A stretch of 32,000 nt of DNA from Candidatus Peribacter riflensis (GCA_001430755.1 CP013062.1:690001-722000), one strand, 5' to 3'. Counted from the stretch's first letter, positions 8,744 through 29,522 are shown. Translations and numbers: made by a program. Notes: generated by a model from the letters alone, not told the origin.

Positions 8744-9289
8744 ATGAGCCTTGTCCTCCTCGTCACCGAAGACGGCACCCCCATGGGTACGGCGGAGCGG
8801 GCAGCCGCCCACGCCTCCCCCGGCATGCTGCACCGGGCCTTCTCGGTCTTTGTGTTCCGCAAGGGCCGCCAGGAGGTGTTGATTCAGCAACGCAGCAGCG
8901 AGAAGACGCTTTTTCCGCTCATCTGGGCCAATACCTGCTGCAGTCACCTGCGGGAGGGCGAAGTGCTCCCGGATGCGGCTCAGGCGAGGCTGCACCAGGA
9001 ACTCGGCATCACCTGCCCACTCACCGAAGGGCCTTCCTTCGTCTACCGGGCAGAAGATCCCGCCGGCCACGGCACGGAGTACGAGTACGACACGATCCTC
9101 TTAGGATCAATACAGGGAGATCCCCCGCTCAAGCCCGATCCGGCCGAAGTGAATGCGGTGCGCTGGATCTCGACCGAGGAGCTCACGAAAGATATGCACA
9201 TGAACCCTGCGCTCTACGCCCCATGGTTCCACCTCGCATTCGCGATGATCATGCGCCGCCCCCTCCGCACCGATGCCAAAAAATCCTGA
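8744..9289 (+). CDS. idi: isopentenyl-diphosphate delta-isomerase, type 1 (Nudix fold)
   Basis: LHRAFSVFVF, QQRSSEKTLFPLIWANTCCSH (active-site Cys motif) and an EYEYD acidic cluster. Confidence 0.85.
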   Translation: MSLVLLVTEDGTPMGTAERAAAHASPGMLHRAFSVFVFRKGRQEVLIQQRSSEKTLFPLIWANTCCSHLREGEVLPDAAQARLHQELGITCPLTEGPSFVYRAEDPAGHGTEYEYDTILLGSIQGDPPLKPDPAEVNAVRWISTEELTKDMHMNPALYAPWFHLAFAMIMRRPLRTDAKKS

Positions 9290-9953
9290 TGCCATGCATG
9301 TCGCCATCATTCCCGACGGCAACCGCCGCTGGGCCAGAGCGCGTGCCTGGCACCCGTGGCAGGGACACGAGAAGGCCGTAGAAAACTTCCGCACGATCAC
9401 GGACTGGTGCGAGGCCGATCCGCGCATCGGCGTGCTCACGGTCTGGTGCTTCTCAACCGAGAATTGGAAGCGCGACCCGAAGGAAGTCGCGAAACTCATG
9501 ACCATATTTGAGGATTATCTTCAGAAAGAGCGCCCCACCTTCCAACAGAAGCGCACCCGCCTGCTCCACTCGGGCCGCAAAGACCGCATTCCCGCTTCCC
9601 TCGCAGCACTCATTGCGGACGTGGAGGCGGAGACTGCGCACTTCTCAGAGTTCACCCTGCACTTAGGCATCGACTACGGCGGCAAGGATGAGGTACTCCG
9701 GGCGATCTCAAAAGCAGCATCACCCGTTCAATCCGAAGAGAAATTCCGCGCGCTCTTGGATCATCCCGAACTCCCGGATATCGATCTCGTCATCCGCACT
9801 TCTGGTGAGCAACGGACCTCGAATTTCTTCCTCTGGCAGAGTGCGTACGCCGAGTGGATATTTTTGGACAAGCTCTTTCCGGATTTCACCACCGATGACC
9901 TGAAGGAAGCCGTCGACGGCTTCGCCAAGCGCTCCCGCAGGTTCGGATCATAA
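9273..9953 (+). CDS. uppS: undecaprenyl-diphosphate synthase family cis-prenyltransferase
   Basis: HVAIIPDGNRRWA and IRTSGEQRTSNFFLWQSAYAEW motifs. The start could be 9273 (overlapping idi) or the ATG at 9294. Confidence 0.85.
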   Translation: MPKNPDAMHVAIIPDGNRRWARARAWHPWQGHEKAVENFRTITDWCEADPRIGVLTVWCFSTENWKRDPKEVAKLMTIFEDYLQKERPTFQQKRTRLLHSGRKDRIPASLAALIADVEAETAHFSEFTLHLGIDYGGKDEVLRAISKAASPVQSEEKFRALLDHPELPDIDLVIRTSGEQRTSNFFLWQSAYAEWIFLDKLFPDFTTDDLKEAVDGFAKRSRRFGS

Positions 9954-10076: not shown

Positions 10077-10988
10077 ATGGTGAAGCACACAGCAGTCGCA
10101 CACGGCAAAATCATTCTCACCGGTGAGTACGCCGTGGTCTTCGGCCATCCCGGCATCGCCGTGCCAGCCCCGCTCGCGATGCAGGCGACTTTCGAGGAAA
10201 ATCCCAAGAGTGCCGCACTCGCGTTAAAGTGGCTGGGCATCAGCGGAGGGAAACTCTGGGAGGAGTACGCGCGCAAGATCATCCTGCACGTAGAACAGAA
10301 CCACACCTTCTTCCGCGGCACGCTCACGATCCGAAACCAACTGCCACTGAAGAAAGGCATGGGCTCCTCGACCGCCCTCGTCATCGCCCTCACCCGCGTC
10401 CTCTTAGGAAAGCAGAAACGGGCAGAGGCACTCGCCATTGAAGACGTGATGAACCCGGGCCACAGCGGCATCGATTTCGCCGTGATCTGGGAAGAGAAGC
10501 CGCTCTACTTCCGCAAAGGTCAGGAGCCGCAAATCATCACCCTCCCCGCTGATCTGCTGCGCGGGGCGCTGCTCGTGGACACGGGAACTCCGCACGAAGC
10601 GACCCCGGAGCTTGTGGCATGGGTGAAGGAGAGAGCAGAAGACCCGCGCGTGAAGCAGGCACTGATCAACATTGGAAAGTGCACGGAGAGGCTGCGGAAA
10701 GGAGAGGATATCCGTTCAGTCTTCCGCGATCACCATCGGTCTCAAGTGGCTCTGGGCGTCGTGCCGAAACCCGTGCAGACGCTCATCGCCGAAATCGAAC
10801 GATTGGGTGGAGCGGCCAAGGTGCTCGGAGCGGGCGGAAGGACCCCCCTTCGCTCCTTCGGAGCTTCGGAGGGGCAAGCGGGAGGCGGAGGCACCGTGCT
10901 CGCGCTCCACAAAAATCCCGACTTGATCCTGCCGGTGATCCGGAAGAATGCGCGGGGAGTGCTGCCGCTCTCTGTCTTATCTCTGTGA
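10077..10988 (+). CDS. mvk: mevalonate kinase (GHMP family) carrying an insertion in motif III
   Basis: GKIILTGEYAVVFG (motif I) and KKGMGSSTA (motif II). Motif III is split: GAGG-RTPLRSFGASEGQAG-GGGTVLAL. I prefer the start at MVKHTAV (10077) over the ORF-track start at 10002. Confidence 0.8.
   Translation: MVKHTAVAHGKIILTGEYAVVFGHPGIAVPAPLAMQATFEENPKSAALALKWLGISGGKLWEEYARKIILHVEQNHTFFRGTLTIRNQLPLKKGMGSSTALVIALTRVLLGKQKRAEALAIEDVMNPGHSGIDFAVIWEEKPLYFRKGQEPQIITLPADLLRGALLVDTGTPHEATPELVAWVKERAEDPRVKQALINIGKCTERLRKGEDIRSVFRDHHRSQVALGVVPKPVQTLIAEIERLGGAAKVLGAGGRTPLRSFGASEGQAGGGGTVLALHKNPDLILPVIRKNARGVLPLSVLSL
10843..10892 (+). repeat. ~50-nt GC-rich palindromic repeat element, in-frame inside mvk
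   Basis: Core CCTTCGCTCCTTCGGAGCTTCGG (10847-10869) equals the reverse complement of 19041-19064 apart from a 1-nt indel. Both copies end with GCGGAGGC. Confidence 0.6.
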
Positions 10989-11837
10989 GAAGAGCGCGTT
11001 CATGGTTTCCCGCAAATCCATGAAGACGCGACTGATGGGGAAACGATTGCACTGGTCCTTCGTGGTCACACCGGTGAGCATCATCCAACCTTCCGCCTTC
11101 CATCCCGCATCATGAAGCTGGGTGGCGAGGCCCATGTCTTCCCGGATATTGTCGCCGATCACAGCAATGCGTGCCGATTCCGGTGTCATCTGCATCCGCT
11201 TCAAGGCAACCTCCGCGATTGCAACATGCGGCTTTCCGAGCACGATGTCCGGCCGACCGTCCTCCTTCGCCGTCGCCAAATAGGCCAGCTGTGCGCCGGC
11301 CGCCGGCAATTCCGCCCCCGATGCAGAACGGTAGGAGCGGTCGCTGTTGACCGAGATGAGCCGCGCACCGAGCCGCACCGCATTCCATGGAGGTGCGAGT
11401 TTTTCGTACGTACTGTGGGTATCCAAACCGTTGACGACATCGGTGGGAAGCACCTGCCAGTTCCCTTGCTTCCACTGATCATTCACGACGGTGAACCCCG
11501 CATCCTGCATTGCCTCGATGAATCCTTCCTCCCCGACAACATGCAGGCGCACATCTTCCGGACATTCGCGGGACGGGTGCTCTCTCAGGTACTGCATGGT
11601 GACATCCACTGCGGTGACCACTTCTTCATCTTTGAGATCACTGACGCCGATTTTCTCGCGGATGACGCGCGCGAGGGCGGGCCCGGTGAGCCGCGATGTA
11701 TTGGAGAGAATGGTGGTCGGCATGCTGTTGCTGCGCGCCTGCTCGACAAATTCCCGTGCACCGGGCAAGACGGTGTTTCCGTTGATCAGCACGCCATCTT
11801 TATCGAGAAGCACGCAGTTGATTTCCTGAAGTTCCAT
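10977..11837 (-). CDS. HAD-superfamily hydrolase, subfamily IIA (NagD-like sugar/nucleotide phosphatase)
   Basis: N-terminal LLDKDGVL (DxDG nucleophile motif), TILSNTS, a GKP lysine motif and VIGDNIREDM (HAD motif IV). I prefer the start at MELQEINC (11837). The ORF-track 5' extension to 12137 overlaps mvaD and looks spurious. Confidence 0.75.
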   Translation of the reverse strand: MELQEINCVLLDKDGVLINGNTVLPGAREFVEQARSNSMPTTILSNTSRLTGPALARVIREKIGVSDLKDEEVVTAVDVTMQYLREHPSRECPEDVRLHVVGEEGFIEAMQDAGFTVVNDQWKQGNWQVLPTDVVNGLDTHSTYEKLAPPWNAVRLGARLISVNSDRSYRSASGAELPAAGAQLAYLATAKEDGRPDIVLGKPHVAIAEVALKRMQMTPESARIAVIGDNIREDMGLATQLHDAGWKAEGWMMLTGVTTKDQCNRFPISRVFMDLRETMNALFSQR

Positions 11838-11879: not shown

Positions 11880-12905
11880 GTGTACCGTCCTTTCATGTCT
11901 GTAACCGCCCGCTCCACGCCCAATATCGCCTTCATCAAGTACTGGGGTAACCGCAGTGATGAGCTGCGGCTGCCGATGGCCCCCTCGCTCTCGATGACCC
12001 TCGACCGGCCGACGGTGGAAATCACGGTGGAGAATGCGGATGCGTTCTCGGTCCGCTCTTTTCTCGCTGATGGTTCGGAGAAAACGCTGAAGGAGAAGGA
12101 TACCGAACGCTTTCGAAAGGTCATCGCGCTCATGCAACGATACCTCGAGTCACTCAAGCTCAAGAGCGTGCCCCTGGAGCAACTGGCAATCACCGTCCGC
12201 TCGCACATTCCGCCTGCCATCGGTCTCGCCTCCTCGGCTGCCGTCTTCAGCTGTCTCGCCAAGGCAGTCGCGGGCTTGGTACAGGATCAAAGCAAACTCT
12301 CGGACAGAGAAGTGAGTATTCTGGCACGTCTCGGATCGGGCTCCGCGGCACGGAGCATCTTCGGCGGCTTCTCCACGCTCGAAGAAGGCAGCGGCATGGA
12401 ACCGGGAAGCTCCTGGAGCGAGCAAATCGCAGATGAAAAGCATTGGACCCTGTATGACATCGTGACGATTCCCGCGATGGAAGAGAAGAAAGTGGGCTCG
12501 ACGGAAGGTCATGCATTGGCTTCTACCAGCCCTTTCTATGCCGATCGTGTGCAGGCGATCCGCTCCAGCCGCCAGCAGGAATGCATCGATGCCATCCAGA
12601 AAAAAGATTTCGAGGCCCTGCAGCGCGTGACGGAGGAGGACTGTCTCGACATGCACCACGTGATGGAGACGAGTGTGCCCCCCCTGCACTACCTCAATGC
12701 CGAAACGCACCGAATCGTGAATGCCATCAAAGAATTGCGATCGAAGGAACACATTCCCGTGCTCTTCACGATGGATGCGGGACCAACAGTCCACCTCGTG
12801 TGTCCAGAAGAGGGCAGAGCAGCGATTCTCTCCTTCGCACATGCGCAGAAGGGGTGCACGATCTTCGAAACAAAAGTCGGACCGGGAGCATCGCTGATCG
12901 GATAG
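11880..12905 (+). CDS. mvaD: diphosphomevalonate decarboxylase family (MDD; a phosphomevalonate-decarboxylase specificity cannot be excluded)
   Basis: PNIAFIKYWGNR, GLASSAAVFSCLA and ARLGSGSAARSIFGG motifs. The start could be 11880 or the ATG at 11895. Confidence 0.8.
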   Translation: MYRPFMSVTARSTPNIAFIKYWGNRSDELRLPMAPSLSMTLDRPTVEITVENADAFSVRSFLADGSEKTLKEKDTERFRKVIALMQRYLESLKLKSVPLEQLAITVRSHIPPAIGLASSAAVFSCLAKAVAGLVQDQSKLSDREVSILARLGSGSAARSIFGGFSTLEEGSGMEPGSSWSEQIADEKHWTLYDIVTIPAMEEKKVGSTEGHALASTSPFYADRVQAIRSSRQQECIDAIQKKDFEALQRVTEEDCLDMHHVMETSVPPLHYLNAETHRIVNAIKELRSKEHIPVLFTMDAGPTVHLVCPEEGRAAILSFAHAQKGCTIFETKVGPGASLIG

Positions 12906-13165: not shown

Positions 13166-14386
13166 ATGGATCTCAGAACTCTCCCTTCCAGCCTCAATGC
13201 GGAACAACGCTGTGACGAGCGTCGCAAACGCGTCGAAGCGGAACTGGGCGTCGATCTTTCGACCCTCCACATGAATGAAGAGCGTATCGGCCAGGCCGAC
13301 GAAAAGAACTGCGAGCAGATGATCGGCGCCGTACCGCTTCCCGTTGGAATTGCTGGGCCGCTCGCGATCACCTTCAGCTCCGGCGAAAAAACAGATGTAG
13401 CTCTCCCGCTCGCCACAACTGAAGCCGCCCTAGTCGCGAGTGTGAATCGCGGATGCAAAGTTCTGTCGACAAGCGGAGGCGTTTCGGTGAAATCTCTTTA
13501 TCACGGCATGTCCCGATCGATAGTGTTCAAGCCAAAAAATAAGAATTCTTCCGCTACTTCTCTCCCCGTCGGGGAGAGACCGAGTGAGGAGGAAAACGGC
13601 GCAAAAGAACATTCGTACACCATACAGATCAAAGCAATGGAGCCAGAGTGGAAACGCATCGGCGAATCGACGAGCGGACATCTGAAAATCCTGCGCCACG
13701 ATCTCGATGAATCCGACGGCTACACCTTTCTCACGATCTTCTGTGACACTTCCGAAGCCATGGGCATGAACATGACGACGATTGCTGCGCAGGCTATTGG
13801 AGATTTTCTCGCAGAGGAACTTGATGCCGAGCTCGTCACCGTCGCCGCGAATGTGGACAGCGACAAGAAGCCGAGTAGGCGCACGCACGACCGCGGCCGC
13901 GGGTACGAGGTCACCGCGAGCGCACTGATCCCCTCTTCTATCATCGCGGAAGTGCTGAAGACAACTCCCGAGAAGCTACTCGCAGTCGCTGACGCAAAAC
14001 TGCAGGTGGGATCCAAAGTCGCAGGAGCGATCGGCAGTAACCTGCATGCGGCAAACATCGTCGCTGCGCTCTACCTCGCCACGGGACAGGATGCGGCGCA
14101 TGTGGTGGAAGGCTCACTTGCGGATACAACAATTACTCCGGCACAGGACGGCATCGCCATCCAGATACGCCTGCCCGCCCTCCTGGTTGGAATCCGCGGC
14201 GGCGGAACCGCTCTGCCGGCGCAACACCAGTGTCTTTCGCTCATCTTAAAGACAAAAACGAAGCTTCAGCCTCCCCTGCAGCTCGCAGAGACGATCGGTG
14301 CCGCAGTTCTCGCAGGAGAATTGAGCCTTCTGGCCGCACAGGCAACACAGACGCTGGCTTCTTCGCACAAAAAACTCGCCCGGTGA
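13166..14386 (+). CDS. hmgA: HMG-CoA reductase, class I (archaeal/eukaryotic type)
   Basis: Class I signatures: NCEQMIGAVPLPVGIAGPL, LATTEAALVASVNRGCK, SEAMGMNM and a C-terminal SSHKK (catalytic His region). I prefer the start at MDLRTL (13166); the 195-codon upstream part of the ORF crosses the structured spacer. Confidence 0.85.
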   Translation: MDLRTLPSSLNAEQRCDERRKRVEAELGVDLSTLHMNEERIGQADEKNCEQMIGAVPLPVGIAGPLAITFSSGEKTDVALPLATTEAALVASVNRGCKVLSTSGGVSVKSLYHGMSRSIVFKPKNKNSSATSLPVGERPSEEENGAKEHSYTIQIKAMEPEWKRIGESTSGHLKILRHDLDESDGYTFLTIFCDTSEAMGMNMTTIAAQAIGDFLAEELDAELVTVAANVDSDKKPSRRTHDRGRGYEVTASALIPSSIIAEVLKTTPEKLLAVADAKLQVGSKVAGAIGSNLHAANIVAALYLATGQDAAHVVEGSLADTTITPAQDGIAIQIRLPALLVGIRGGGTALPAQHQCLSLILKTKTKLQPPLQLAETIGAAVLAGELSLLAAQATQTLASSHKKLAR

Positions 14387-14518: not shown

Positions 14519-15559
14519 ATGTCATCTCCCCACTCCGCCATCGTCGGCTTCGGCATGTACATCCCCAGTCAGCGGATCACCGTCGAAGAGATCGCGAAAC
14601 ATTGGGGCAGGGATCCGCAGGAGATTGAGAGTGGACTGGGCGTGAAAGAGAAAGCTGTTGCGGGGGAGGGCGAAGACAGTTTCACGCTCGCATTCGAGGC
14701 GGCCCGTCAGGCGATCACCCTCTCGCAGATCCCCTCTTCACAGATCAGCGCGATCTTCGCGGGATCCGAAAGCCACCCCTACGCCGTGAAGCCGACGAGC
14801 GGGATGCTTGCCGCCGCCTTAGACCTGCACCCGTTCTCGTTCTGCGCGGACTTGGAGTTCGCCTGCAAGGCCGGAACGGCAGGCATGCAGATCATCGATG
14901 CTTTCGTGCGGAGCGGCCAGATCACCTACGGCCTCGCCATCGGCACCGACCGCGCACAGGCCAAGCCGGGCGATGCGCTGGAGTACACGGCGGCAGCCGG
15001 CGCCGCAGCCATGCTCTTGGGTCCCGAGACAGACGCCCACGCGCTCTGCCGCATTGAGCACACACTCTCCTTCACCACTGACACGCCGGATTTCTGGCGG
15101 ACCGCGCACGCTCCCTACCCCGCCCATGCGGGACGCTTCACCGGCGAACCGGGCTACTTCCTACACGTGCGGCAGGCACTTCAAGGCATGCTCGACGTGA
15201 CGAAGACAAAGCTCACCGATGTGGACCACGTCATCCTGCACATGCCGAACGCCAAATTCCCCGGCAAGATCGCCAAAGAATTCAAAATCAGCAAGGAGCA
15301 GATGCAGGAAGGCTTCATCGTGCCCACGATCGGCAATACCTACAGCGCCTGTTCGCTCTTGGGATTGGCGCACGTCCTGCAGAAAGCGAAGAAAGGCCAG
15401 CGCCTCCTCCTGGTTTCGTACGGTTCCGGAGCAGGTGCCGACGCTTTCCTGCTCACCATGCTCCGGAACGGAGTACAGTTACCCATAGACGAACGCCCGC
15501 TCCGGTACATTTCCTACGGGGAATACCGCAGAAATGAGGAGAAAACAGCAGTTTTGTAA
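14519..15559 (+). CDS. HMG-CoA synthase, archaeal type (thiolase-fold condensing enzyme)
   Basis: 346 aa. Active-site Cys context DLEFACKAGTAGM, and the small size typical of archaeal-type HMGS. It is followed by a thiolase and a DUF35 gene, as in archaeal three-gene sets. Confidence 0.85.
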   Translation: MSSPHSAIVGFGMYIPSQRITVEEIAKHWGRDPQEIESGLGVKEKAVAGEGEDSFTLAFEAARQAITLSQIPSSQISAIFAGSESHPYAVKPTSGMLAAALDLHPFSFCADLEFACKAGTAGMQIIDAFVRSGQITYGLAIGTDRAQAKPGDALEYTAAAGAAAMLLGPETDAHALCRIEHTLSFTTDTPDFWRTAHAPYPAHAGRFTGEPGYFLHVRQALQGMLDVTKTKLTDVDHVILHMPNAKFPGKIAKEFKISKEQMQEGFIVPTIGNTYSACSLLGLAHVLQKAKKGQRLLLVSYGSGAGADAFLLTMLRNGVQLPIDERPLRYISYGEYRRNEEKTAVL

Positions 15560-15595: not shown

Positions 15596-16711
15596 ATGCA
15601 GAAGGAACTTTCGCTTGTTGGAATCGGCCAGACCAAATTTGGAGAGTGGTGGGGCAAAAGCCTCTCATCTCTGATGGAAGAAGCAGTGGACGCGGCCATC
15701 GCCTCCGCCCCCTGCTCCGCGCTCGATATCGATTTCATCGTCGTGGCCAACATGCTCGGGGAATCCACGAGCGGACAGGCGCATTTGGGAGCGCTCGCGG
15801 CGTCGCTGCTGCCCCACCATCCTCCCGCCATTCGCGTGGAAGCGGCCTGCGCTTCGGGCTCCGTGGCCATGCACACCGCCTGCGCACTCCTCGAGAGCGG
15901 CCGCGCCGAAACGGTGCTGGTCGTGGGAGCCGAGAAGATGACCGATGCCTCGGGCGATGAGATCACCACCGCGCTGATGGGGGCTGCGGACAGCGAAAAG
16001 GATGCTCCCTCCGGCCTCACGTTCCCCGGCATTTTCGGGCTCATCGCCCGACGCTACATGCACGACTACGGCCTGACGCGGAATCAACTCAATCTCGTGA
16101 GCGCGCGTCACCACGCAAACGGCGTCAAAAACCCCTTCGCACAGTTCCGGCAGGAGATCGCCCCCGCGCAGATCGGCACGAGCACGCTCGTGGCGGATCC
16201 GCTGCGGCTTCTGGATTGCTCACCGGTGAGCGATGGTGCGGCAGCCTGCATCCTTTCCACCAAGCACCACTCTCCCATTCGCATCGCCGCCTCCCAGACC
16301 AGCACTGATACGGTGAGCATCACCGATCGGCCGCTCATCACCTCCTTCGCCGCAACCAAAGACGCCGTCACGCGCGCTTTCGAAGAGGCAGACATCGCGG
16401 CAAGTGACATCGCACACGTGGAACTGCACGACTGCTTCTCTATTGCCGCCCTCATTGCACTCGAAGATCTGGGCTTCGCAGAGCCGGGAGAAGGAATACG
16501 GTGGTACGAGCAGCCACAGACGATGACGGTGAACCAGAGCGGCGGGCTCAAGGCCTGTGGCCACCCGGTCGCCGCCACGGGCATCAAACAGATCATCGAT
16601 GTGAGCAAGCAACTGCAGGCATCCGGAAAGCCCTGGGGCCTCGCGCACAATTTCGGCGGAGCCGGTGCCACCTGCTGCGTCCATATTCTCCATCACCATG
16701 CGCACGCCTGA
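15596..16711 (+). CDS. acetyl-CoA acetyltransferase (archaeal-type thiolase)
   Basis: Nucleophilic Cys context VEAACASGSVAM. C-terminal GGLKACGHPVAATG and NFGGAGAT motifs of the thiolase superfamily. Confidence 0.85.
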   Translation: MQKELSLVGIGQTKFGEWWGKSLSSLMEEAVDAAIASAPCSALDIDFIVVANMLGESTSGQAHLGALAASLLPHHPPAIRVEAACASGSVAMHTACALLESGRAETVLVVGAEKMTDASGDEITTALMGAADSEKDAPSGLTFPGIFGLIARRYMHDYGLTRNQLNLVSARHHANGVKNPFAQFRQEIAPAQIGTSTLVADPLRLLDCSPVSDGAAACILSTKHHSPIRIAASQTSTDTVSITDRPLITSFAATKDAVTRAFEEADIAASDIAHVELHDCFSIAALIALEDLGFAEPGEGIRWYEQPQTMTVNQSGGLKACGHPVAATGIKQIIDVSKQLQASGKPWGLAHNFGGAGATCCVHILHHHAHA

Positions 16712-17633
16712 TTCTCCCGCTCTCGCCGCCCGCTCACAGTCACGCCGCAGAGCGCAGATGCTCCCGGGCACCCTGCTCTCGTTCACAACGGTCACGCATC
16801 CGCCGAAGGGTTTTCCGGATCATGCGCGCACCATCGGGCTGATCGAACTCACCGACGGACACCGTGTCATCGGTCCCCTGACGGGCTCTCTGGAGCCACA
16901 AATCGGCCAGACTGTGATGCCGCGTATGCGCCTGAGCCGCGTGAATGAACAGGGGCTGCGGCTCTACGATATTGCGTACGAGCTGACGACACGCGTGGCA
17001 GGAGTGCAGGAGAACGAAAAGAAACTTTTCCCCGGCTACATCCTCGCGTTCACGGGACCGTCGGGCGTGGGCAAGACCACCGTCTCTCTGCTCCTCACAA
17101 AAATGCTCAATGATTTCACGGCAAAGGTCCCCATCGTGACGAGCCGCGAACCGAAGGAGGGGGATGATCAGGAGTATGACTATGTCTCGTTCCAGGAGTT
17201 TGAACGGATGCGGTCGAACGGAGAGCTTGCAGCCTGGACACGCATTCCCTCTGAAACAGAAGAGCGATTCTATGGCTACCGCAAGAGCAATATCGCCGCC
17301 ATCTGGGAGCAGGGAAAACTCCCGGTTGTCGTGACAGAAATGCAGCTGCTGCAGTGCCTCGCCCATGAGTTCGGCAGGCGTTCGATCCTCTCGTTCGGAT
17401 TGCTGCCCCCCGGCGAGAGCAAGCGCGCGATGCTCAGCCAGCTTCTGCACCGCATGCGCGCCCGCGGCCGCGAAACGGATGCACAAATCGAGGAACGGCT
17501 GACCAATGCCCAGGCCGATTTGGACTTCTTCACGCGTGCCGGACACCTCTTCGACTACGTCCTCGTGAATGAAGATCTCGACACACTGCTTCAGGTAATC
17601 AAGGGACATGTTTTGGCGCTTGCCAAAGCCTAA
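16698..17633 (+). CDS. fusion protein: DUF35-type OB-fold (no zinc ribbon) + divergent guanylate-kinase-like P-loop kinase domain
   Basis: N-terminal GTLLSFTTVTHPPKGFPDHARTIGLIELTDGHRVIGPL...IGQTVMPRMR follows the DUF35 OB pattern. The C-terminal FTGPSGVGKTT, VTSREPKEGDDQEYDYVS, FYGY, RMRARGRETDAQIEERL and FDYVLVNEDLDTLL follow the Gmk motif order. Possible starts are 16665, 16698 or 16758, all in one frame with no internal stop. Confidence 0.75.
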   Translation: MRTPDSPALAARSQSRRRAQMLPGTLLSFTTVTHPPKGFPDHARTIGLIELTDGHRVIGPLTGSLEPQIGQTVMPRMRLSRVNEQGLRLYDIAYELTTRVAGVQENEKKLFPGYILAFTGPSGVGKTTVSLLLTKMLNDFTAKVPIVTSREPKEGDDQEYDYVSFQEFERMRSNGELAAWTRIPSETEERFYGYRKSNIAAIWEQGKLPVVVTEMQLLQCLAHEFGRRSILSFGLLPPGESKRAMLSQLLHRMRARGRETDAQIEERLTNAQADLDFFTRAGHLFDYVLVNEDLDTLLQVIKGHVLALAKA

Positions 17634-17704: not shown

Positions 17705-17754
17705 TACTAGATTTCTCGCGCGTGCGCGCGCGTGGAACAGCAACACAAAAATTC

Positions 17755-18972
17755 ATGTCTCTTCATTCGCTCATGTTCGGCTGGGAGTACCCGCCACGCC
17801 ACCTCGGGGGACTCGGAGTCGCCTGCCAGGGACTCGTGCGGGGGCTCATCAACCAGAATGTCAAAGTAACACTCGTCCTCCCATTCGCAGCCGACGGATC
17901 GCAGGAAAATGTGGACGTGCTCTTCCCCACCGAAAAGCATATTTCCACCATCCGCGTTGCCAGTCTGCTGCTGCCGTATGACTCCCCTGATCAGTACGTA
18001 CAGCGCATACAGGCCATTCCGCGTGAGACGGCAGAGATGTACGGGGATAATCTCGGACAGGCGGTACACATCTTCACCGAAACGAGTGTGGAAATGACCA
18101 GGGACCTGCAGCCCGATGTGGTGCACGCCCACGACTGGATGACGTACGAGGCCGGCACGCGTTCCGCGCGCTTCCACGGTAAGCCGCTGGTGGCGCACAT
18201 CCATGCCACCGAACTCGACCGCACGCACTTTCATCCAAACGAGTGGATTTACGGACGGGAGCGATGGGGCTTTCAGCAGGCTGACCACATCATCGCTGTG
18301 AGCAACTACACCAGAAACATTCTCATCCAGCACTACGGCATTGATCCGGACAAAATTTCCGTCGTGCATAACGGCAGCAGTGAATCCCGGCACGTCGAAT
18401 CTGCACAGCAACCAGAAACGACTACCCCGACAAAGAAACGGCCGATGGTGCTCTTTCTCGGGCGCCTCACGATACAGAAGGGACCGCTCCACTTTTTGGA
18501 AATGGCCTCGATGGTGCACCGGCTGCGGCCGGACGTGCAGTTCGTGGTCGCCGGCGACGGGCACATGCTCCCCTCGCTCATGGACCAAGCGGTCCAACTG
18601 GGCCTGGAGGATTGCATCATCTTCTCGGGCAAGGTATCGAATACCGAAGCGCGCAAACTCTATGCCCAGGCGAGCTGCTTCGTGATGCCCTCCCTCTCCG
18701 AACCGTTTGGACTCGTGGCGCTGGAGGCAATCGCCCAAGACACACCGGTGATTCTGAGCAAGCAATCCGGAGCGAGCGAGGTGATCGGGCACGCGTTCAA
18801 GGTGGACTTCTGGGATACCGAAAAAATGGCGGACTGTGTGCTCACGGTCCTGCGCGAGGCGCCGCTCGCCTCCCAGCTCATCTCCGAAGCGCCGCGCGTT
18901 CTGCAGCACCTCACATGGGATAACCAGGCGGGAAAGGTGCTCTCCATCTACCGAAACATCCTTCATTCCTAA
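17755..18972 (+). CDS. glycosyltransferase, GT4/GT5 glycogen(alpha-glucan)-synthase-like
   Basis: N-terminal FGWEYPPRHLGGLGVACQGL, and an EX7E-type motif PSLSEPFGLVALEAIA. I prefer the start at MSLHSLMF (17755). Confidence 0.8.
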   Translation: MSLHSLMFGWEYPPRHLGGLGVACQGLVRGLINQNVKVTLVLPFAADGSQENVDVLFPTEKHISTIRVASLLLPYDSPDQYVQRIQAIPRETAEMYGDNLGQAVHIFTETSVEMTRDLQPDVVHAHDWMTYEAGTRSARFHGKPLVAHIHATELDRTHFHPNEWIYGRERWGFQQADHIIAVSNYTRNILIQHYGIDPDKISVVHNGSSESRHVESAQQPETTTPTKKRPMVLFLGRLTIQKGPLHFLEMASMVHRLRPDVQFVVAGDGHMLPSLMDQAVQLGLEDCIIFSGKVSNTEARKLYAQASCFVMPSLSEPFGLVALEAIAQDTPVILSKQSGASEVIGHAFKVDFWDTEKMADCVLTVLREAPLASQLISEAPRVLQHLTWDNQAGKVLSIYRNILHS

Positions 18973-18990
18973 CCCTCCCCTCATCCGATC

Positions 18991-19140
18991 ATGCCGCCTC
19001 TCGTCTGCCTCTACTTCCGGCCTCCGCAGGAGGCCGCCCACCGAAGCTCCGAACGGAGCGAAGGCGGGCAGGTCCGCTCGGGGATCACCTCCTGCTACGG
19101 TCGGCAAGTCTCTGACATCCTTCCCCCCGCATCACGATGA
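18991..19140 (+). CDS. 49-codon upstream ORF whose first 9 residues mimic the GH57 N-terminus; ATGA overlap with the GH57 start
   Basis: Peptide MPPLVCLYFRPPQEAAHRSSERSEGGQVRSGITSCYGRQVSDILPPASR. Its TGA (19138-19140) overlaps the GH57 ATG (19137-19139). Translation is unproven. Confidence 0.3.
   Translation: MPPLVCLYFRPPQEAAHRSSERSEGGQVRSGITSCYGRQVSDILPPASR
19020..19097 (-). repeat. inverted copy of the GC-rich palindromic element, closed by GCAGGAGG/CCTCCTGC
   Basis: Core 19041-19064 is the reverse complement of the mvk copy. An 8-bp closing stem pairs 19026-19033 with 19088-19095. Confidence 0.6.
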
Positions 19141-20429
19141 GTCCTCTTGTGTGTCTCTACTTCCAGGTTCACCAGCCCTACCGCCTGCGGGATCTGAGGA
19201 TCACCGAAATCGGCAAAGGTACAGAGCCGGATTACTTCGACCATGAGAAGAACCGCTCGGTCTTCCGCAAGGTTGCGGAGAAGTGCTACCTGCCGGCGAA
19301 CCGTATGATGCTTTCGCTCCTGGAGCGGTATCCGGATTTCGCCATCGCCTACTCGCTCTCGGGGGTCTTCCTCGATCAGTGCGAAGAGTACGGAGAGGAC
19401 GTGCTGGAGAGTTTCCGGCGCCTGGGCGCAACGGGGCGGGTCGAATTCCTCGCCGAAACGTACTACCATTCGCTCTCCTCCATCCGCGATACGGAGGAAT
19501 TTTGCGAGCAGACCACGCTCCACATCCGCAAGATCGAAGACCTGTTCGGAATGACGCCCTCCATCTTCCGTAATACCGAGCTGATCTACAGCAATGACTT
19601 GGCGCAGACCGTGCGGCTCATGGGATTCAAAGGCATTCTCGCAGAGGGAACCGATCACCTGCTGCAGGGCAGGAGCGCGAACCTCCCCTACATGCCTCCG
19701 CGGTTCCGGCTGCCCCGCAGCAAGGAAATGCTCATCGCCCGGCACCGTCCGCTGCCGCAGAGATCGGAAAATATCTCCGTTCTGCTCAAGAACTACCGCC
19801 TCTCTGACGACGTGGCGTTCCGCTTTTCAGATAAGAGCTGGGTGGGATTCCCGCTCAAGGCGGAAACATTCACCGACTGGCTGCTCGGGGGCGGCGGGCA
19901 CAGCGTGAACCTGTTCATGGACTACGAAACATTCGGAGAGCACCAGTGGGAAGACACCGGCATCTTTGAATTCTTGAGGACACTGCCGCGTATCTGGCAG
20001 GAGCGTGGCGTGCACACAGCGACTCCCTCGCAGGTGCTGGCCGCCTGGGAGCAGACCACCGCGCCCATCTACGATGTCCATTCGTTGATCTCGTGGGCCG
20101 ATACCGAACGCGACCTTTCGGCGTGGCAGGGCAATCAGATCCAGACATCCGCGCTGAAGGCCATTCACGAACTCGGCCCGCTGGTCAAAGCAACGGGGAA
20201 CGCGAATCTGATCAATACCTGGCGAAAATTGCAGACATCCGACCACTTCTACTACATGTGCACGAAGTACTGGAACGACGGAGACGTACATAAGTACTTC
20301 AGCCCTTACGATTCCCCCTACGAAGCGTACCGCCGCTACAGCCACGCGCTGTGCGATTTGAAATCACGCGTGGAACCAAAACAAAAACACAAACAGCACA
20401 CAGCACACAGCAAACGTCCTAAGTCCTAA
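19137..20429 (+). CDS. glycoside hydrolase family 57 (alpha-amylase / alpha-glucanotransferase-like)
   Basis: N-terminal LYFQVHQPYRL (GH57 HQP region), GRVEFLAETYYHSL, RNTELIYS and MDYETFGEHQWE regions. The C-terminal tail KQKHKQHTAHSKRPKS is encoded by an AC-rich repeat. Confidence 0.85.
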   Translation: MSPLVCLYFQVHQPYRLRDLRITEIGKGTEPDYFDHEKNRSVFRKVAEKCYLPANRMMLSLLERYPDFAIAYSLSGVFLDQCEEYGEDVLESFRRLGATGRVEFLAETYYHSLSSIRDTEEFCEQTTLHIRKIEDLFGMTPSIFRNTELIYSNDLAQTVRLMGFKGILAEGTDHLLQGRSANLPYMPPRFRLPRSKEMLIARHRPLPQRSENISVLLKNYRLSDDVAFRFSDKSWVGFPLKAETFTDWLLGGGGHSVNLFMDYETFGEHQWEDTGIFEFLRTLPRIWQERGVHTATPSQVLAAWEQTTAPIYDVHSLISWADTERDLSAWQGNQIQTSALKAIHELGPLVKATGNANLINTWRKLQTSDHFYYMCTKYWNDGDVHKYFSPYDSPYEAYRRYSHALCDLKSRVEPKQKHKQHTAHSKRPKS

Positions 20430-20459
20430 TCCCCAATCCCTCATCCCCAAAAATGCCCC
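20376..20459 (+). repeat. AC-rich tract followed by a CGTCCTAAGTCC + (TCCCYAA)n C-rich repeat
   Basis: CCAAAACAAAAACACAAACAGCACACAGCACACAGCAAA, then CGTCCTAAGTCC TAATCCCCAATCCCTCATCCCCAAAAA. The 12-mer CGTCCTAAGTCC is shared with 24340-24351, and the 11-mer AACACAAACAG with 12926-12936. Confidence 0.6.
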
Positions 20460-22504
20460 GCTCCCTCGTCATCGGCAACGGTCAGATCCTCGCCGGCTTT
20501 GACGATCGCATGCAGATGCGCGACCTCTACTTCCCCCATGTGGGAATGGAGGATCACACGGGCTACGGCAACGTGCACCGCACGGGAGTCTTCGTCGAAG
20601 GACGCGGGTTCGCCTGGTTCTCGGACCCCTCGTGGTCGGTGGAGCCGAAGTACCGGCCCGATTCCCTCGTGGGCGAATCGAGACTGCGCAATGACCGATT
20701 GGGCATCGAGCTCATCGCGGAAGATTACGTCCATCCGTTCTACAACATCCTCATCCGTAACTTCCGCATCCGCAGTACGGACGGCCAGGAGAAGAAGATC
20801 CGCGTCTACTTCCACCACAACCTCTTCATCTACGGTGACAAACAGAAAGACACGGGCTTCTACGAACCATACACCAACACCATCATTCACTACCGCCAGA
20901 AGCGGTACTTCCTCATCGGCGGAGAAACGAGCAATCCGGATGCCGCCGTCACCGGGCGCGTGAACATGGGAGAATACCAATCCGTGCTCCACAGCCGCGA
21001 ACGGCTGGGGACCTGCGGCATCGGCAGCTACAGCATCGGCAAAGCCAACTACCAGGGCTACGAAGGAACGTGGAAGGATGCCGAAGACGGAGCACTCAGC
21101 AACACCACCATCGACCAGGGATCGGTAGACTCCACCATCGGGATTCATGCCGTGCTGCGGCCGGACAGAGAAACCACCGTGACGCTCTGGCTCTGCATGG
21201 GCAAGGATCTTGAGGAGGTGGTGAACCTGCACCAGATTGTGATCAATGAAGGGCAGGAACGCCTGCAGGGCAACTGCCACAACTACTGGAAAAGCCTGGT
21301 CCTCATGGCGGATCAGAAATTCGGCACGCTCAGTGACTCGCTCGTCAGTCTCTACCGCCGCAGCCTGCTCCTCATTCGCCTGCATGCCGATAATCGCGGC
21401 GGCATCGTGGCCGCAGCCGATGCAGACATCATGGCGTTCAACCGCGACACCTACACCTACGTGTGGCCGCGGGACGGCGCCTTCATCTCGCTGGCCTTAG
21501 ACCAGGCGCAACTGCACGAAGTCACGCGACGCTTCTTCGAATTCTGCGCGCGTGTGCAGACGCCCGACGGCTACCTCCTCCACAAGTACAATCCCGATGG
21601 ATCACTGGGATCCTCGTGGCACCCCTGGTACCGCAACGGCGAGGCACAGATGCCCATTCAGGAGGACGAGACAGCCCTCGTGATCTACGCACTCTGGAAA
21701 CATTTCGAGCGCGTGCAGGATTTCGAATTCCTGCAGGAGATGTACGAGAAGTTCGTCAAGAAAGCGGGTCAGTTCCTCACGGAATTCCGCGAAGAGGCAA
21801 CGGGGCTCCCCTTCCCCAGTTATGACCCGTGGGAGGAGCATCGTGGCGTCTTCACCTACACGGTCGCGACTGTGGTTGCCGGCCTGCACGCGGCAGCGCA
21901 GATCTGCCAGATTCTGGGGCACCACACACACTCCGAGCGCTTCCACACCGCTGCAGACGAGACGAAGCAGGCACTGCTCTTCCACCTCTACGACGAAAAT
22001 GAAAAACGGTTCGTGAAGATGATCCGCCGCCAGGATGGCCGCACCGTTGAGAAGGACCTCACGATCGATGCGAGCGTCACCGCCGTCTGGAAACTCAATG
22101 TGCTCCCCGCCAGCGATCCGCGCGTCATCTCCACCATGCAGCAGATGCAGCGGGCCCTCACGGTGCACACGCCCATCGGCGGCCTCGCGCGGTTCACGCA
22201 TGATGTGTACCACGCCAAAACCCCCCTCACGAACGAGATTCCCGGCAACCCCTGGATCATCACCACCCTGTGGAATGCGCAGTGGCTGATCGCGCAGGCG
22301 AAAACACCGGCCGATCTCGAGCCGGCGCGTGCGATTCTCGAATGGACCGCACAACGCGCATCGAAAACCGGCATCCTCGCCGAACAGGTGCATCCCCTCA
22401 CGGGGGAGCCGCTCTCCGTCGCCCCTCTGGCATGGAGCCACGCCACCTTCGTCGAGACCATTCTGCAGTTCGTCGACAAGGAACGCACGCTCACGCAATC
22501 CTGA
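20453..22504 (+). CDS. glycoside hydrolase family 15 (glucoamylase/glucodextranase-like)
   Basis: 683 aa. YTYVWPRDGAFISLAL, PIQEDETALVIYALW and an (alpha/alpha)6-type C-terminal region ending WSHATFVE. Confidence 0.85.
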   Translation: MPRSLVIGNGQILAGFDDRMQMRDLYFPHVGMEDHTGYGNVHRTGVFVEGRGFAWFSDPSWSVEPKYRPDSLVGESRLRNDRLGIELIAEDYVHPFYNILIRNFRIRSTDGQEKKIRVYFHHNLFIYGDKQKDTGFYEPYTNTIIHYRQKRYFLIGGETSNPDAAVTGRVNMGEYQSVLHSRERLGTCGIGSYSIGKANYQGYEGTWKDAEDGALSNTTIDQGSVDSTIGIHAVLRPDRETTVTLWLCMGKDLEEVVNLHQIVINEGQERLQGNCHNYWKSLVLMADQKFGTLSDSLVSLYRRSLLLIRLHADNRGGIVAAADADIMAFNRDTYTYVWPRDGAFISLALDQAQLHEVTRRFFEFCARVQTPDGYLLHKYNPDGSLGSSWHPWYRNGEAQMPIQEDETALVIYALWKHFERVQDFEFLQEMYEKFVKKAGQFLTEFREEATGLPFPSYDPWEEHRGVFTYTVATVVAGLHAAAQICQILGHHTHSERFHTAADETKQALLFHLYDENEKRFVKMIRRQDGRTVEKDLTIDASVTAVWKLNVLPASDPRVISTMQQMQRALTVHTPIGGLARFTHDVYHAKTPLTNEIPGNPWIITTLWNAQWLIAQAKTPADLEPARAILEWTAQRASKTGILAEQVHPLTGEPLSVAPLAWSHATFVETILQFVDKERTLTQS

Positions 22505-29475: not shown

Positions 29476-29522
29476 CCCAGTTCCCAAGTTCCCAAGTTCC
29501 CTATTCCCCAGTTCCCTCTCCC
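29476..29522 (-). repeat. 7-8-nt tandem repeat (CCCAAGTT-type), G-rich on the coding (-) strand
   Basis: CCCAGTT CCCAAGTT CCCAAGTT CCCTATT CCCCAGTT CCCTCT CCC: seven C3-4 runs spaced 3-5 nt apart. It begins at the stop codon of the ATPase gene. Confidence 0.7.

Follow-up and report, generated by a model that had tools for sequence, protein, structure and literature searches.

A DUF35-guanylate kinase-like fusion closes the mevalonate operon of Candidatus Peribacter riflensis and is a candidate isopentenyl-phosphate kinase

We analyzed a stretch of 32,000 nucleotides from Candidatus Peribacter riflensis (GCA_001430755.1, CP013062.1:690001-722000), referred to here at its full length as the window. 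The source is a very small bacterium from groundwater that belongs to the Peregrinibacteria within the candidate phyla radiation. It contains a mevalonate operon, and the last gene of this operon encodes a DUF35-type OB fold fused to a guanylate kinase (GK)-like domain. The genes of the operon are co-directional, in the order isopentenyl diphosphate (IPP) isomerase (IDI), undecaprenyl-diphosphate synthase (UPPS), a mevalonate kinase (MVK)-like GHMP kinase, a decarboxylase annotated as mvaD, HMG-CoA reductase (HMGR), HMG-CoA synthase (HMGS), thiolase, and the fusion (Table 1). Searches of the window with Pfam and NCBIfam models found an MVK-like GHMP kinase and an MDD-like decarboxylase, and neither a phosphomevalonate kinase (PMK) nor an isopentenyl-phosphate kinase (IPK). 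This bears out the first-pass annotation, a reading made from the sequence without database searches, which had noted mvk and mvaD in the window without PMK or IPK; as described below, we now read the mvaD product as a decarboxylase of the phosphomevalonate decarboxylase (PMD) type. Five complete genomes of Ca. Peribacter are available, and that of Ca. P. riflensis is curated and complete (PMC4736985). Their mevalonate pathway was described as "near-complete": the steps to mevalonate-5-phosphate and from mevalonate-5-diphosphate were found, and the step linking them was not (PMC4736985). In the annotation table of the complete genome, terpenoid backbone biosynthesis consists of seven operon genes only, and the table has no entry for K00938, K13273, or K06981, which denote PMK or IPK (PMC4736985, supplement 2).

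The fusion gene is a single uninterrupted open reading frame (ORF) of 311 codons on the plus strand. The 3' end of the thiolase gene, including its stop, overlaps the start of the fusion gene by 14 nt, so that the ATG of the fusion is within the thiolase gene. A 311-aa protein of Ca. Peribacter riflensis matches the product along its entire length with 100% identity. The first-pass annotation had described one ORF directly after HMGS and thiolase, with a DUF35 OB fold lacking a CxxC motif in the first half and a guanylate kinase-like second half, and each of these points was confirmed. The ORF was found intact, and both halves scored above the cutoffs of their Pfam models: OB_ChsH2_C (PF01796, the C-terminal OB fold of DUF35) matched aa 24-74 with 37.6 bits against a cutoff of 27.1, and Guanylate_kin (PF00625) matched aa 118-302 with 52.2 bits against 25.2. 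There is no CxxC zinc ribbon in the sequence, aa 1-104 of the fusion contain no cysteine at all, and the family alignment has no conserved cysteine in the N-termini. Against PDB, the DUF35 half had only a marginal match to ChsH2(DUF35) (6OK1_B, E 0.14). An AlphaFold2 model of the fusion protein, which was built on 20 homologues, had a mean pLDDT of 80 and consisted of two domains. In the model, a helix at residues 7-20 is followed by an OB barrel of five strands, a linker that is disordered, and a kinase domain of the alpha/beta type. With Foldseek, the kinase domain of the predicted model matched the yeast guanylate kinase 1GKY with a TM-score of 0.89, an rmsd of 2.1 Å, and an E value of 1e-16.

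To describe the residue pattern of the GK-like domain, we used a HMMER alignment to the yeast guanylate kinase (Gmk; 1GKY/1EX6) and compared 250 family members with 93 canonical Gmks. Following the literature on 1GKY, we take R38, R41, Y50, and Y78 of yeast Gmk to be the acceptor-phosphate residues, S34, E69, S80, and D100 to be the guanine-recognition residues, K14 to be the P-loop residue, and the LID arginines to bind ATP. The catalytic residues are conserved in the family. Lysine occupies the K14 site in 243 of 250 members, and the LID arginines are found in 240-248. At the acceptor-phosphate sites, R38 is Arg in 240, Y50 is Tyr in 240, and Y78 is Tyr in 241 members, and the R41 site is occupied by Lys (204) or Arg (23). 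The guanine-recognition residues are different. The S34 site is Ile, Leu, Met, or Val (Ile in the window protein). The E69 site is Ala (182), Ser (41), or Thr (25) and never Glu (Ala in the window protein). The S80 site is Tyr in 249 members, and the D100 site is Glu in 238, as it is in the window protein. The window domain also has GD for GE at the E44 site. The changes at GMP-contacting positions that had been proposed by eye (Lys in place of the second Arg, GD in place of GE, Ala in place of Glu69, and YGY with a following Arg in place of YGS/T) were thus recovered in the alignment and across the 250 members, and the insertion, put at 4-5 residues before, is 4 residues long and lies ahead of the invariant YGYR. 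The most conserved stretch of the family alignment is GRRSILSFGLLPPGxSKRxMLSxLLHRLR. The guanine pocket appears to have been replaced mainly by hydrophobic and aromatic residues, and guanine is apparently no longer recognized. Since the phosphate clamp and the catalytic set are kept while the guanine readers are lost, the domain looks like an active kinase for a phosphorylated, non-guanine, and probably less polar acceptor.

The same two-domain architecture was found in at least 469 proteins with 53-100% identity in NCBI, JGI, ENA, and Logan assemblies. Where the source is named, these homologues are from Peribacteraceae, Peregrinibacteria, or Patescibacteria. In the related loci of these assemblies the operon is the same gene for gene, and the order HMGS-thiolase-fusion was seen in every related locus with visible upstream sequence. 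These proteins are named "OB-fold domain-containing protein" or "guanylate kinase" in the databases. In an exhaustive HMMER search of 1.84 billion cluster representatives, clear members of the subfamily scored at least 118 bits, single-domain canonical Gmks of about 200 aa scored at most about 72 bits, and a few fragments and multi-domain proteins fell between 118 and 72 bits. Genome and metagenome scans gave about 12 and 8 family loci among the matches listed, which were mostly canonical Gmks sharing TGPSGVGK.

It had been considered that the domain might simply be the housekeeping Gmk. Nucleotide synthesis is essentially complete in Peribacter (PMC4736985), and the genome annotation table assigns K00942 both to the fusion (gene _643, 103.7 bits) and to a separate, canonical 200-aa gmk (gene _213, 157.7 bits) (PMC4736985, supplement 2). 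The GK-like domain failed the NCBIfam gmk equivalog TIGR03263 (86-88 bits against a cutoff of 160), as well as NF011325 (53 bits against 263) and NF011324 (45 against 318). With a separate canonical gmk in the genome, the equivalog cutoff failed, and the guanine readers lost, the possibility of a housekeeping Gmk was rejected, and the fusion domain is not the GMP kinase of this genome.

The substrate of the missing kinase depends on the lower pathway. In PDB, the MVK-like kinase of the operon matched only MVKs (best 2X7I, 66 bits). It is K00869 in the genome table (108.8 bits), and it shares the N-terminal motif GKIIL.GE.AV.FG.P.IAVP with the MVK of S. aureus. In this N-terminal motif, GEY is found where GEH is usual. 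For the decarboxylase, the best solved relative was 6N0X, with 173.9 bits compared with at most 136.5 bits for diphosphomevalonate decarboxylases (DMDs). 6N0X is the phosphomevalonate decarboxylase of Anaerolinea thermophila (AthPMD) with mevalonate-5-phosphate bound (PMC9254496). The wild-type AthPMD contains IKYWGNRDAVLRIP and GSTQGHALASTSP, the window decarboxylase contains IKYWGNRSDELRLP and GSTEGHALASTSP, and the motifs YWGN...LR.P and GST.GHALASTSP are common to both. The deposited AthPMD variant 6N0Z carries Lys in place of the Asn and Met in place of the His, as DMDs do. Relative to SeMDD, the window decarboxylase has Asn at Lys21, Arg at Ile27, and His at Met196. According to Dellas et al. 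(Table 4), Lys21 is strictly conserved in MDDs, and a residue other than Lys at this position together with Arg27 is the MPD signature (PMC3857490). Asn21, Arg27, and His196 were found in all 13 loci with an operon of the window type (type A), and the Lys21/Met196 of diphosphate-specific decarboxylases was absent from the window protein and from all 13 of these loci. Judged by its sequence, the decarboxylase of the operon is thus of the PMD type, which would yield isopentenyl phosphate (IP), and the mvaD annotation is probably wrong across the Peregrinibacteria clade. Since a PMD-type decarboxylase makes IP, the missing enzyme would be an IP kinase and not a PMK.

We propose that the GK-like domain is a non-orthologous IPK tethered through DUF35 to the thiolase/HMGS complex, a reading of substrate and tethering that we hold with about even confidence. 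The ribbon-less DUF35 OB fold would dock on the thiolase/HMGS complex encoded just upstream, as archaeal DUF35 does, and the 14-nt gene overlap presumably couples translation of the fusion to that of the thiolase. The C-terminal domain would be a Gmk paralogue that has kept the ATP-binding and phosphoryl-transfer machinery and the acceptor-phosphate clamp, and its guanine pocket would have been rebuilt with hydrophobic and aromatic residues. The lower pathway would be of the Chloroflexi/haloarchaeal type, in which the product of the MVK-like kinase is converted by the phosphomevalonate decarboxylase to IP. The GK-like domain, on its flexible linker, would then phosphorylate IP to IPP, replacing the missing IPK of the amino-acid-kinase type, and the IPP would go to IDI and UPPS, which the operon also encodes. 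NMP-kinase folds move a phosphate onto a phosphate, and such a fold would therefore be suited to the step from IP to IPP. An IPK is favored here over a PMK, which the sequences make less likely. The proposal that the fused P-loop domain is a candidate non-orthologous PMK or IPK, which came from the first-pass annotation, is supported by the separate gmk (_213), the loss of the guanine readers, and the PMD-type decarboxylase. In keeping with its statement that no such fusion was known, full-text searches of the literature turned up neither a DUF35-Gmk fusion nor an IPK or PMK with a Gmk fold.

The related loci contained two types of operon. Type A was found in 13 loci and several partial ones. 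The second type (type B; L010, L011, L091, and L161) contains an extra GHMP kinase and a different decarboxylase. The extra kinase passes the MVK equivalog TIGR00549 (197-202 bits against 163), and the decarboxylase (MDD2) has Arg21, Arg27, and His or Gln at position 196. The type-B cassette is thus a canonical archaeal-like MVK with MDD2, and these operons hold two MVK-like kinases: the window-type MVK-like gene is retained in L010, L011, and L161, and the contig of L091 ends before that region. We also considered that the extra GHMP kinase was a PMK, which was rejected because NCBIfam and PDB both call it a canonical MVK. Therefore, a rule that the GK domain is dead where a GHMP-type PMK is present is not established. 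Dead GK domains were found in none of the 13 type-A loci and in two of the four type-B loci (L011 and L161), in which the P-loop Lys or the TTR Arg was lost in addition to the LID arginines. Three more dead kinase domains (L162-L164) are on truncated contigs. All of the dead versions keep the GLLPPG core, within a GRRSILSFGLLPPGxSKR stretch that is retained even in these degenerate members, suggesting that the domain also has a structural, non-catalytic role. The pattern fits a kinase that is needed together with a PMD-type decarboxylase and is dispensable once the lower pathway has been rewired.

The subfamily also has standalone members, about 200 aa in length, in which the residue pattern is the same. 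In a Patescibacteria metagenome-assembled genome (L013), the standalone gene, which adjoins UPPS in back-to-back orientation, extends over the start of IDI and lies near a polyprenyl synthase gene. In three loci (L165, L168, and L170) it closes a cluster of the order HisPhos-UPPS-HisPhos-GK-like, in L166 it follows two HisPhos genes, and in L167 a GK-like gene with a reduced N-terminal part follows HMGS and thiolase. L015 (near secY-adk-map) and L169 have unrelated contexts. The recurrent neighbors of the standalone genes, IDI and UPPS, use IPP, and canonical IPK genes of the candidate phyla radiation (CPR) are typically syntenic with IDI (Hoshino and Gaucher, PMC6107057). In L165, L166, L168, and L170, the standalone gene overlaps the end of a histidine-phosphatase-family (His_Phos_1) gene, usually after UPPS, which makes a conserved kinase-phosphatase-prenyltransferase mini-cluster. 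Taken as a whole, this GK-fold family, mainly from Peregrinibacteria and from other CPR bins, might be a new kind of IPK that is mostly tethered through DUF35 and decays to a structural pseudokinase after rewiring, an extension that we offer only tentatively. In that case, a single assembly would hold the last kinase of the mevalonate route together with its first two enzymes.

Several observations weigh against an IPK. The decarboxylase scores above the cutoff of TIGR01240, the NCBIfam equivalog for diphosphomevalonate decarboxylase (212 bits against 171), and the genome table lists it under K01597; its assignment as a PMD rests on two or three determinant residues and a similarity ranking. 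The contrast between 0 of 13 and 2 of 4 loci with dead kinase domains is small, and the loci are phylogenetically non-independent. Although an extra kinase is present, the GK domain is intact in the type-B loci L010 and L091, and in L016 a fully DMD-like decarboxylase (Lys21/Asn27) is found with an intact GK domain, which fits a PMK better. Because of L016 and the intact domains of the type-B loci, the acceptor may vary between lineages, or the enzyme may take both IP and mevalonate-5-phosphate. The arrangement of the two domains in the AlphaFold2 model is uncertain (pTM 0.57). Finally, gene _544, which is outside the window (genome coordinates 607431..608741), encodes a 437-aa hypothetical protein resembling argB-like amino-acid kinases, with 76.9 bits against a cutoff of 78.2. 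Arginine synthesis is absent from this genome, and besides the fusion, _544 is the one gene visible as a possible IP kinase; it might be an IPK.

Alternatively, the GK-like domain might be a structural or regulatory module of the thiolase/HMGS/DUF35 complex, for instance a pseudo-Gmk that senses a nucleotide or metabolite, as in MAGUK proteins, or it might be a second NMP kinase with altered specificity; the pathway kinase would then be encoded elsewhere, for example by _544. This explanation is the first to be weighed and we consider it unlikely. In its favor, the P-loop Lys, the TTR Arg, and the LID arginines are gone from several relatives that still keep the domain and its core, the genome does have the sub-threshold amino-acid-kinase-like gene, and some standalone members are in the unrelated contexts of L015 and L169. 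However, the full catalytic set is conserved in the window protein and in 243 of 250 members, which would be unexpected for a purely structural module, and the acceptor-phosphate clamp is kept as well. Moreover, degenerate forms were found only together with the extra MVK-like kinase and a different decarboxylase or in a truncated context, and the linkage to IDI and UPPS persists without DUF35.

The GK-like domain might instead be a PMK, converting mevalonate-5-phosphate to mevalonate-5-diphosphate for a classical DMD as an analogue of the animal enzyme. The TIGR01240 match of the decarboxylase and the L016 decarboxylase, DMD-like with Lys21 and Asn27, are in line with this, and so is the gap reported in 2016, which lies between mevalonate-5-phosphate and mevalonate-5-diphosphate. 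The invariant arginines of the family (R195 and R227/R228) could also bind a carboxylate. Nevertheless, the window decarboxylase has the Asn and His of AthPMD, its best solved relative, where DMDs have Lys and Met, and this signature was found in 13 of 13 type-A loci. In addition, the standalone homologues adjoin the IPP-using IDI and UPPS and not a decarboxylase, and the guanine pocket has been replaced mainly by hydrophobic or aromatic residues. A PMK is thus improbable, and we continue to prefer an IPK.

It is highly improbable that the GK-like domain is the mevalonate kinase of the type-A operons, with the divergent GHMP kinase catalyzing a later step, so that the gain of an MVK made the GK domain dispensable. 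Besides the decarboxylase, a canonical MVK is indeed the only gain of the type-B loci, degeneration of the GK domain was seen, among the loci of the two types, only in type B, and the GHMP kinase of the window fails the MVK cutoff. However, the clamp residues R38, Y50, and Y78 are kept, which points to a phosphate and not a hydroxyl as the acceptor, and the GHMP kinase of the window matches only MVKs among solved structures, shares the S. aureus MVK motif, and had no match to a PMK model at E <= 0.01. That the ORF is an assembly or frameshift artefact joining a DUF35 gene to the housekeeping gmk, a doubt raised when the fusion was first noted, can be practically dismissed: nothing was found in its favor, hundreds of assemblies made independently of one another contain the fusion, the Peribacter genome is curated and complete, and a separate canonical gmk is present.

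The fusion would bring together elements of known kinds: a Gmk paralogue, a DUF35 scaffold, and non-orthologous displacement in the mevalonate pathway. If the proposed function is correct, it would close the gap behind the "near-complete" pathway of Peribacteria, and it would add a third unrelated fold for making IPP from IP or for the second phosphorylation of the pathway. Many "mvaD" and "gmk" annotations in CPR would then be wrong, the former being PMD and not DMD and the latter a pathway kinase and not Gmk. The finding bears on the debate over the ancestral variant of the mevalonate pathway in CPR, bacteria, and archaea. The fusion to DUF35 also suggests that the scaffold organizes more than the thiolase/HMGS pair, and the domain, if an IPK, would provide a compact P-loop kinase for terpene engineering based on isoprenol or IP.

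The coordinates of the operon genes, of the domains and motifs of the fusion, and of comparable features in related loci are collected in Table 1. The start of HMGR was taken from the published annotation. The frame is open for about 585 nt further 5', back to 12581, and overlaps the decarboxylase gene; this extension had no domain match and is probably untranslated. Between the genes for the MVK-like kinase and the decarboxylase, the opposite strand carries a HAD-IIA (NagD/PGP-like) phosphatase gene (10977..11837, minus strand), which is missing from the same place in L001, L003, and L161. In L001, UPPS and the kinase are separated by a polyprenyl synthase gene of the minus strand. Directly after the operon are glycogen-type genes (17722..22504, plus strand) encoding a GT4/GT5 synthase, a GH57 enzyme (an alpha-amylase according to the genome table), and a glucoamylase-like protein of GH15, and this synteny is kept in most of the Peregrinibacteria loci examined. 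Elsewhere in the window, the 829-aa product of 6171..8660 (minus strand) combines SLH domains with a beta-propeller (PF09826, 548 bits) and is probably at the cell surface, and 29522..31765 (minus strand) encodes a 747-aa VirD4/TraG/TrwB-like coupling ATPase of the kind used in conjugation or type IV secretion; the genome measures only 1.25 Mb.

Table 1. Features of the mevalonate operon and the fusion gene in the window, and related features in other loci (coordinates of those loci)
Feature	Coordinates	Strand	Evidence or remarks
Type 1 IPP isomerase (Nudix)	8744..9289	+	NF002995 159.9 bits vs 127; TIGR02150 118.9 vs 105.8
Undecaprenyl-diphosphate synthase (cis-prenyltransferase), IPP consumer	9273..9953	+	PF01255 222 bits
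Divergent MVK-like GHMP kinase, sole GHMP kinase of the operon	10077..10988	+	TIGR00549 90.7 bits vs cutoff 163
MDD-family decarboxylase, annotated mvaD, with PMD determinants	11895..12905	+	Best solved relative AthPMD 6N0X
HMG-CoA reductase class I	13166..14386	+	PF00368 295 bits; gene _640 in genome table
Archaeal-type HMG-CoA synthase	14519..15559	+	NF003274 429 bits vs 244; TIGR00748 386 vs 353
Archaeal-type acetoacetyl-CoA thiolase	15596..16711	+	Pfam Thiolase_N and Thiolase_C_1; NCBIfam thiolase models
Fusion gene, 311 aa: DUF35 OB fold, linker, GK-like domain	16698..17633	+	ORF; PF01796 and PF00625
N-terminal helix and DUF35-type OB fold, aa 1-104	16698..17009	+	PF01796; five-strand model
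Flexible inter-domain linker, aa 101-108	16998..17021	+	pLDDT <50; length variable across family alignment
GK-like P-loop kinase domain, aa 118-302	17049..17603	+	PF00625; TIGR03263; Foldseek
P-loop GPSGVGKT, aa 120-127	17055..17078	+	G120-K126 invariant in family alignment
Acceptor-phosphate clamp region VPIVTSREPKEGDDQEYDY	17130..17183	+	R38, K-for-R41, D-for-E44, and Y50 equivalents; Ile for Ser34
YGYR motif, aa 192-195	17271..17282	+	Tyr78 equivalent kept; Tyr for Ser80; invariant family-specific Arg195
GRRSILSFGLLPPGESKR core motif, aa 226-243	17373..17426	+	Invariant columns R227 to R243; candidate interaction surface
LID segment HRMRARGRE, aa 251-259	17448..17474	+	Invariant H251, R252, R254, R256, G257
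Type-B cassette, L010	4419..6412		
Type-B cassette, L011	4066..6154	-	
Type-B cassette, L091	144..2322	-	
Type-B cassette, L161	4260..6208	-	
Pseudokinase fusion, L011	9890..10897		
Pseudokinase fusion, L161	9765..10688		
Pseudokinase fusion, L162	3094..4011		
Pseudokinase fusion, L163	3247..4140		
Pseudokinase fusion, L164	4064..4951		
GK-like/His_Phos_1 cluster, L165	5953..8642		
GK-like/His_Phos_1 cluster, L168	650..3283		
GK-like/His_Phos_1 cluster, L170	4193..6187		
GK-like/His_Phos_1 cluster, L166	6659..8597		

Compared with Gmk (EC 2.7.4.8; yeast GUK1, 1GKY, and E. coli Gmk), the kinase half has the same fold (TM-score 0.89), PF00625, P-loop, LID, and the R38, Y50, and Y78 equivalents. 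It differs in that identity is about 25% and in that Ile, Ala, Tyr, and Glu occupy the S34, E69, S80, and D100 sites. It also differs by the 4-residue insertion, the family-specific YGYR, GRRSILSFGLLPPGxSKR, the DUF35 partner, and the location in a mevalonate operon. DUF35 scaffolds the archaeal thiolase/HMG-CoA synthase complex (PDB 6ET9, as summarised in PMC11522927). Like the archaeal scaffold as it is summarized there, the fusion has a PF01796 OB fold, and its gene directly follows archaeal-type HMGS and thiolase genes; in contrast, it lacks the N-terminal Cys4 zinc ribbon and carries a C-terminal kinase domain of about 200 aa. An HMGS-DUF35 fusion is mentioned for Streptomyces albus (PMC11522927). 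There, too, DUF35 is covalently joined to another mevalonate-pathway protein in a bacterium, but HMGS itself is the partner; the fusion described here joins an N-terminal DUF35 to a kinase-fold domain.

The IPKs of archaea, Chloroflexi, and some CPR convert IP and ATP to IPP, the reaction proposed here, and stand at the same point of the pathway, following a phosphomevalonate decarboxylase. Synteny with IDI is frequent for canonical CPR IPK genes and is also seen for the standalone GK-like gene of L013. The likeness in function is a proposal only, as the fusion has a P-loop NMP-kinase fold instead of an amino-acid-kinase fold (PF00696, for which the fusion had no Pfam match) and there is no sequence homology. 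The animal PMK is a P-loop NMP-kinase-fold enzyme, not a GHMP kinase, and it phosphorylates a mevalonate-pathway phosphate. This enzyme (PMVK; Pfam P-mevalo_kinase) is thus a precedent for an NMP-kinase fold acting at such a phosphate. It belongs to another family: the fusion is bacterial, is joined to DUF35, likely acts on IP and not on mevalonate-5-phosphate, and had no match to GHMP-type PMK or P-mevalo_kinase models in Pfam and NCBIfam at E <= 0.01. Finally, in the GK-like domains of MAGUK proteins such as CASK and MPP5, a Gmk fold has also been repurposed away from GMP, and the dead relatives in L011 and L161-L164 resemble them. Unlike the MAGUK domains, the domain in the window has an intact P-loop and LID, is prokaryotic, and is linked to a metabolic operon.

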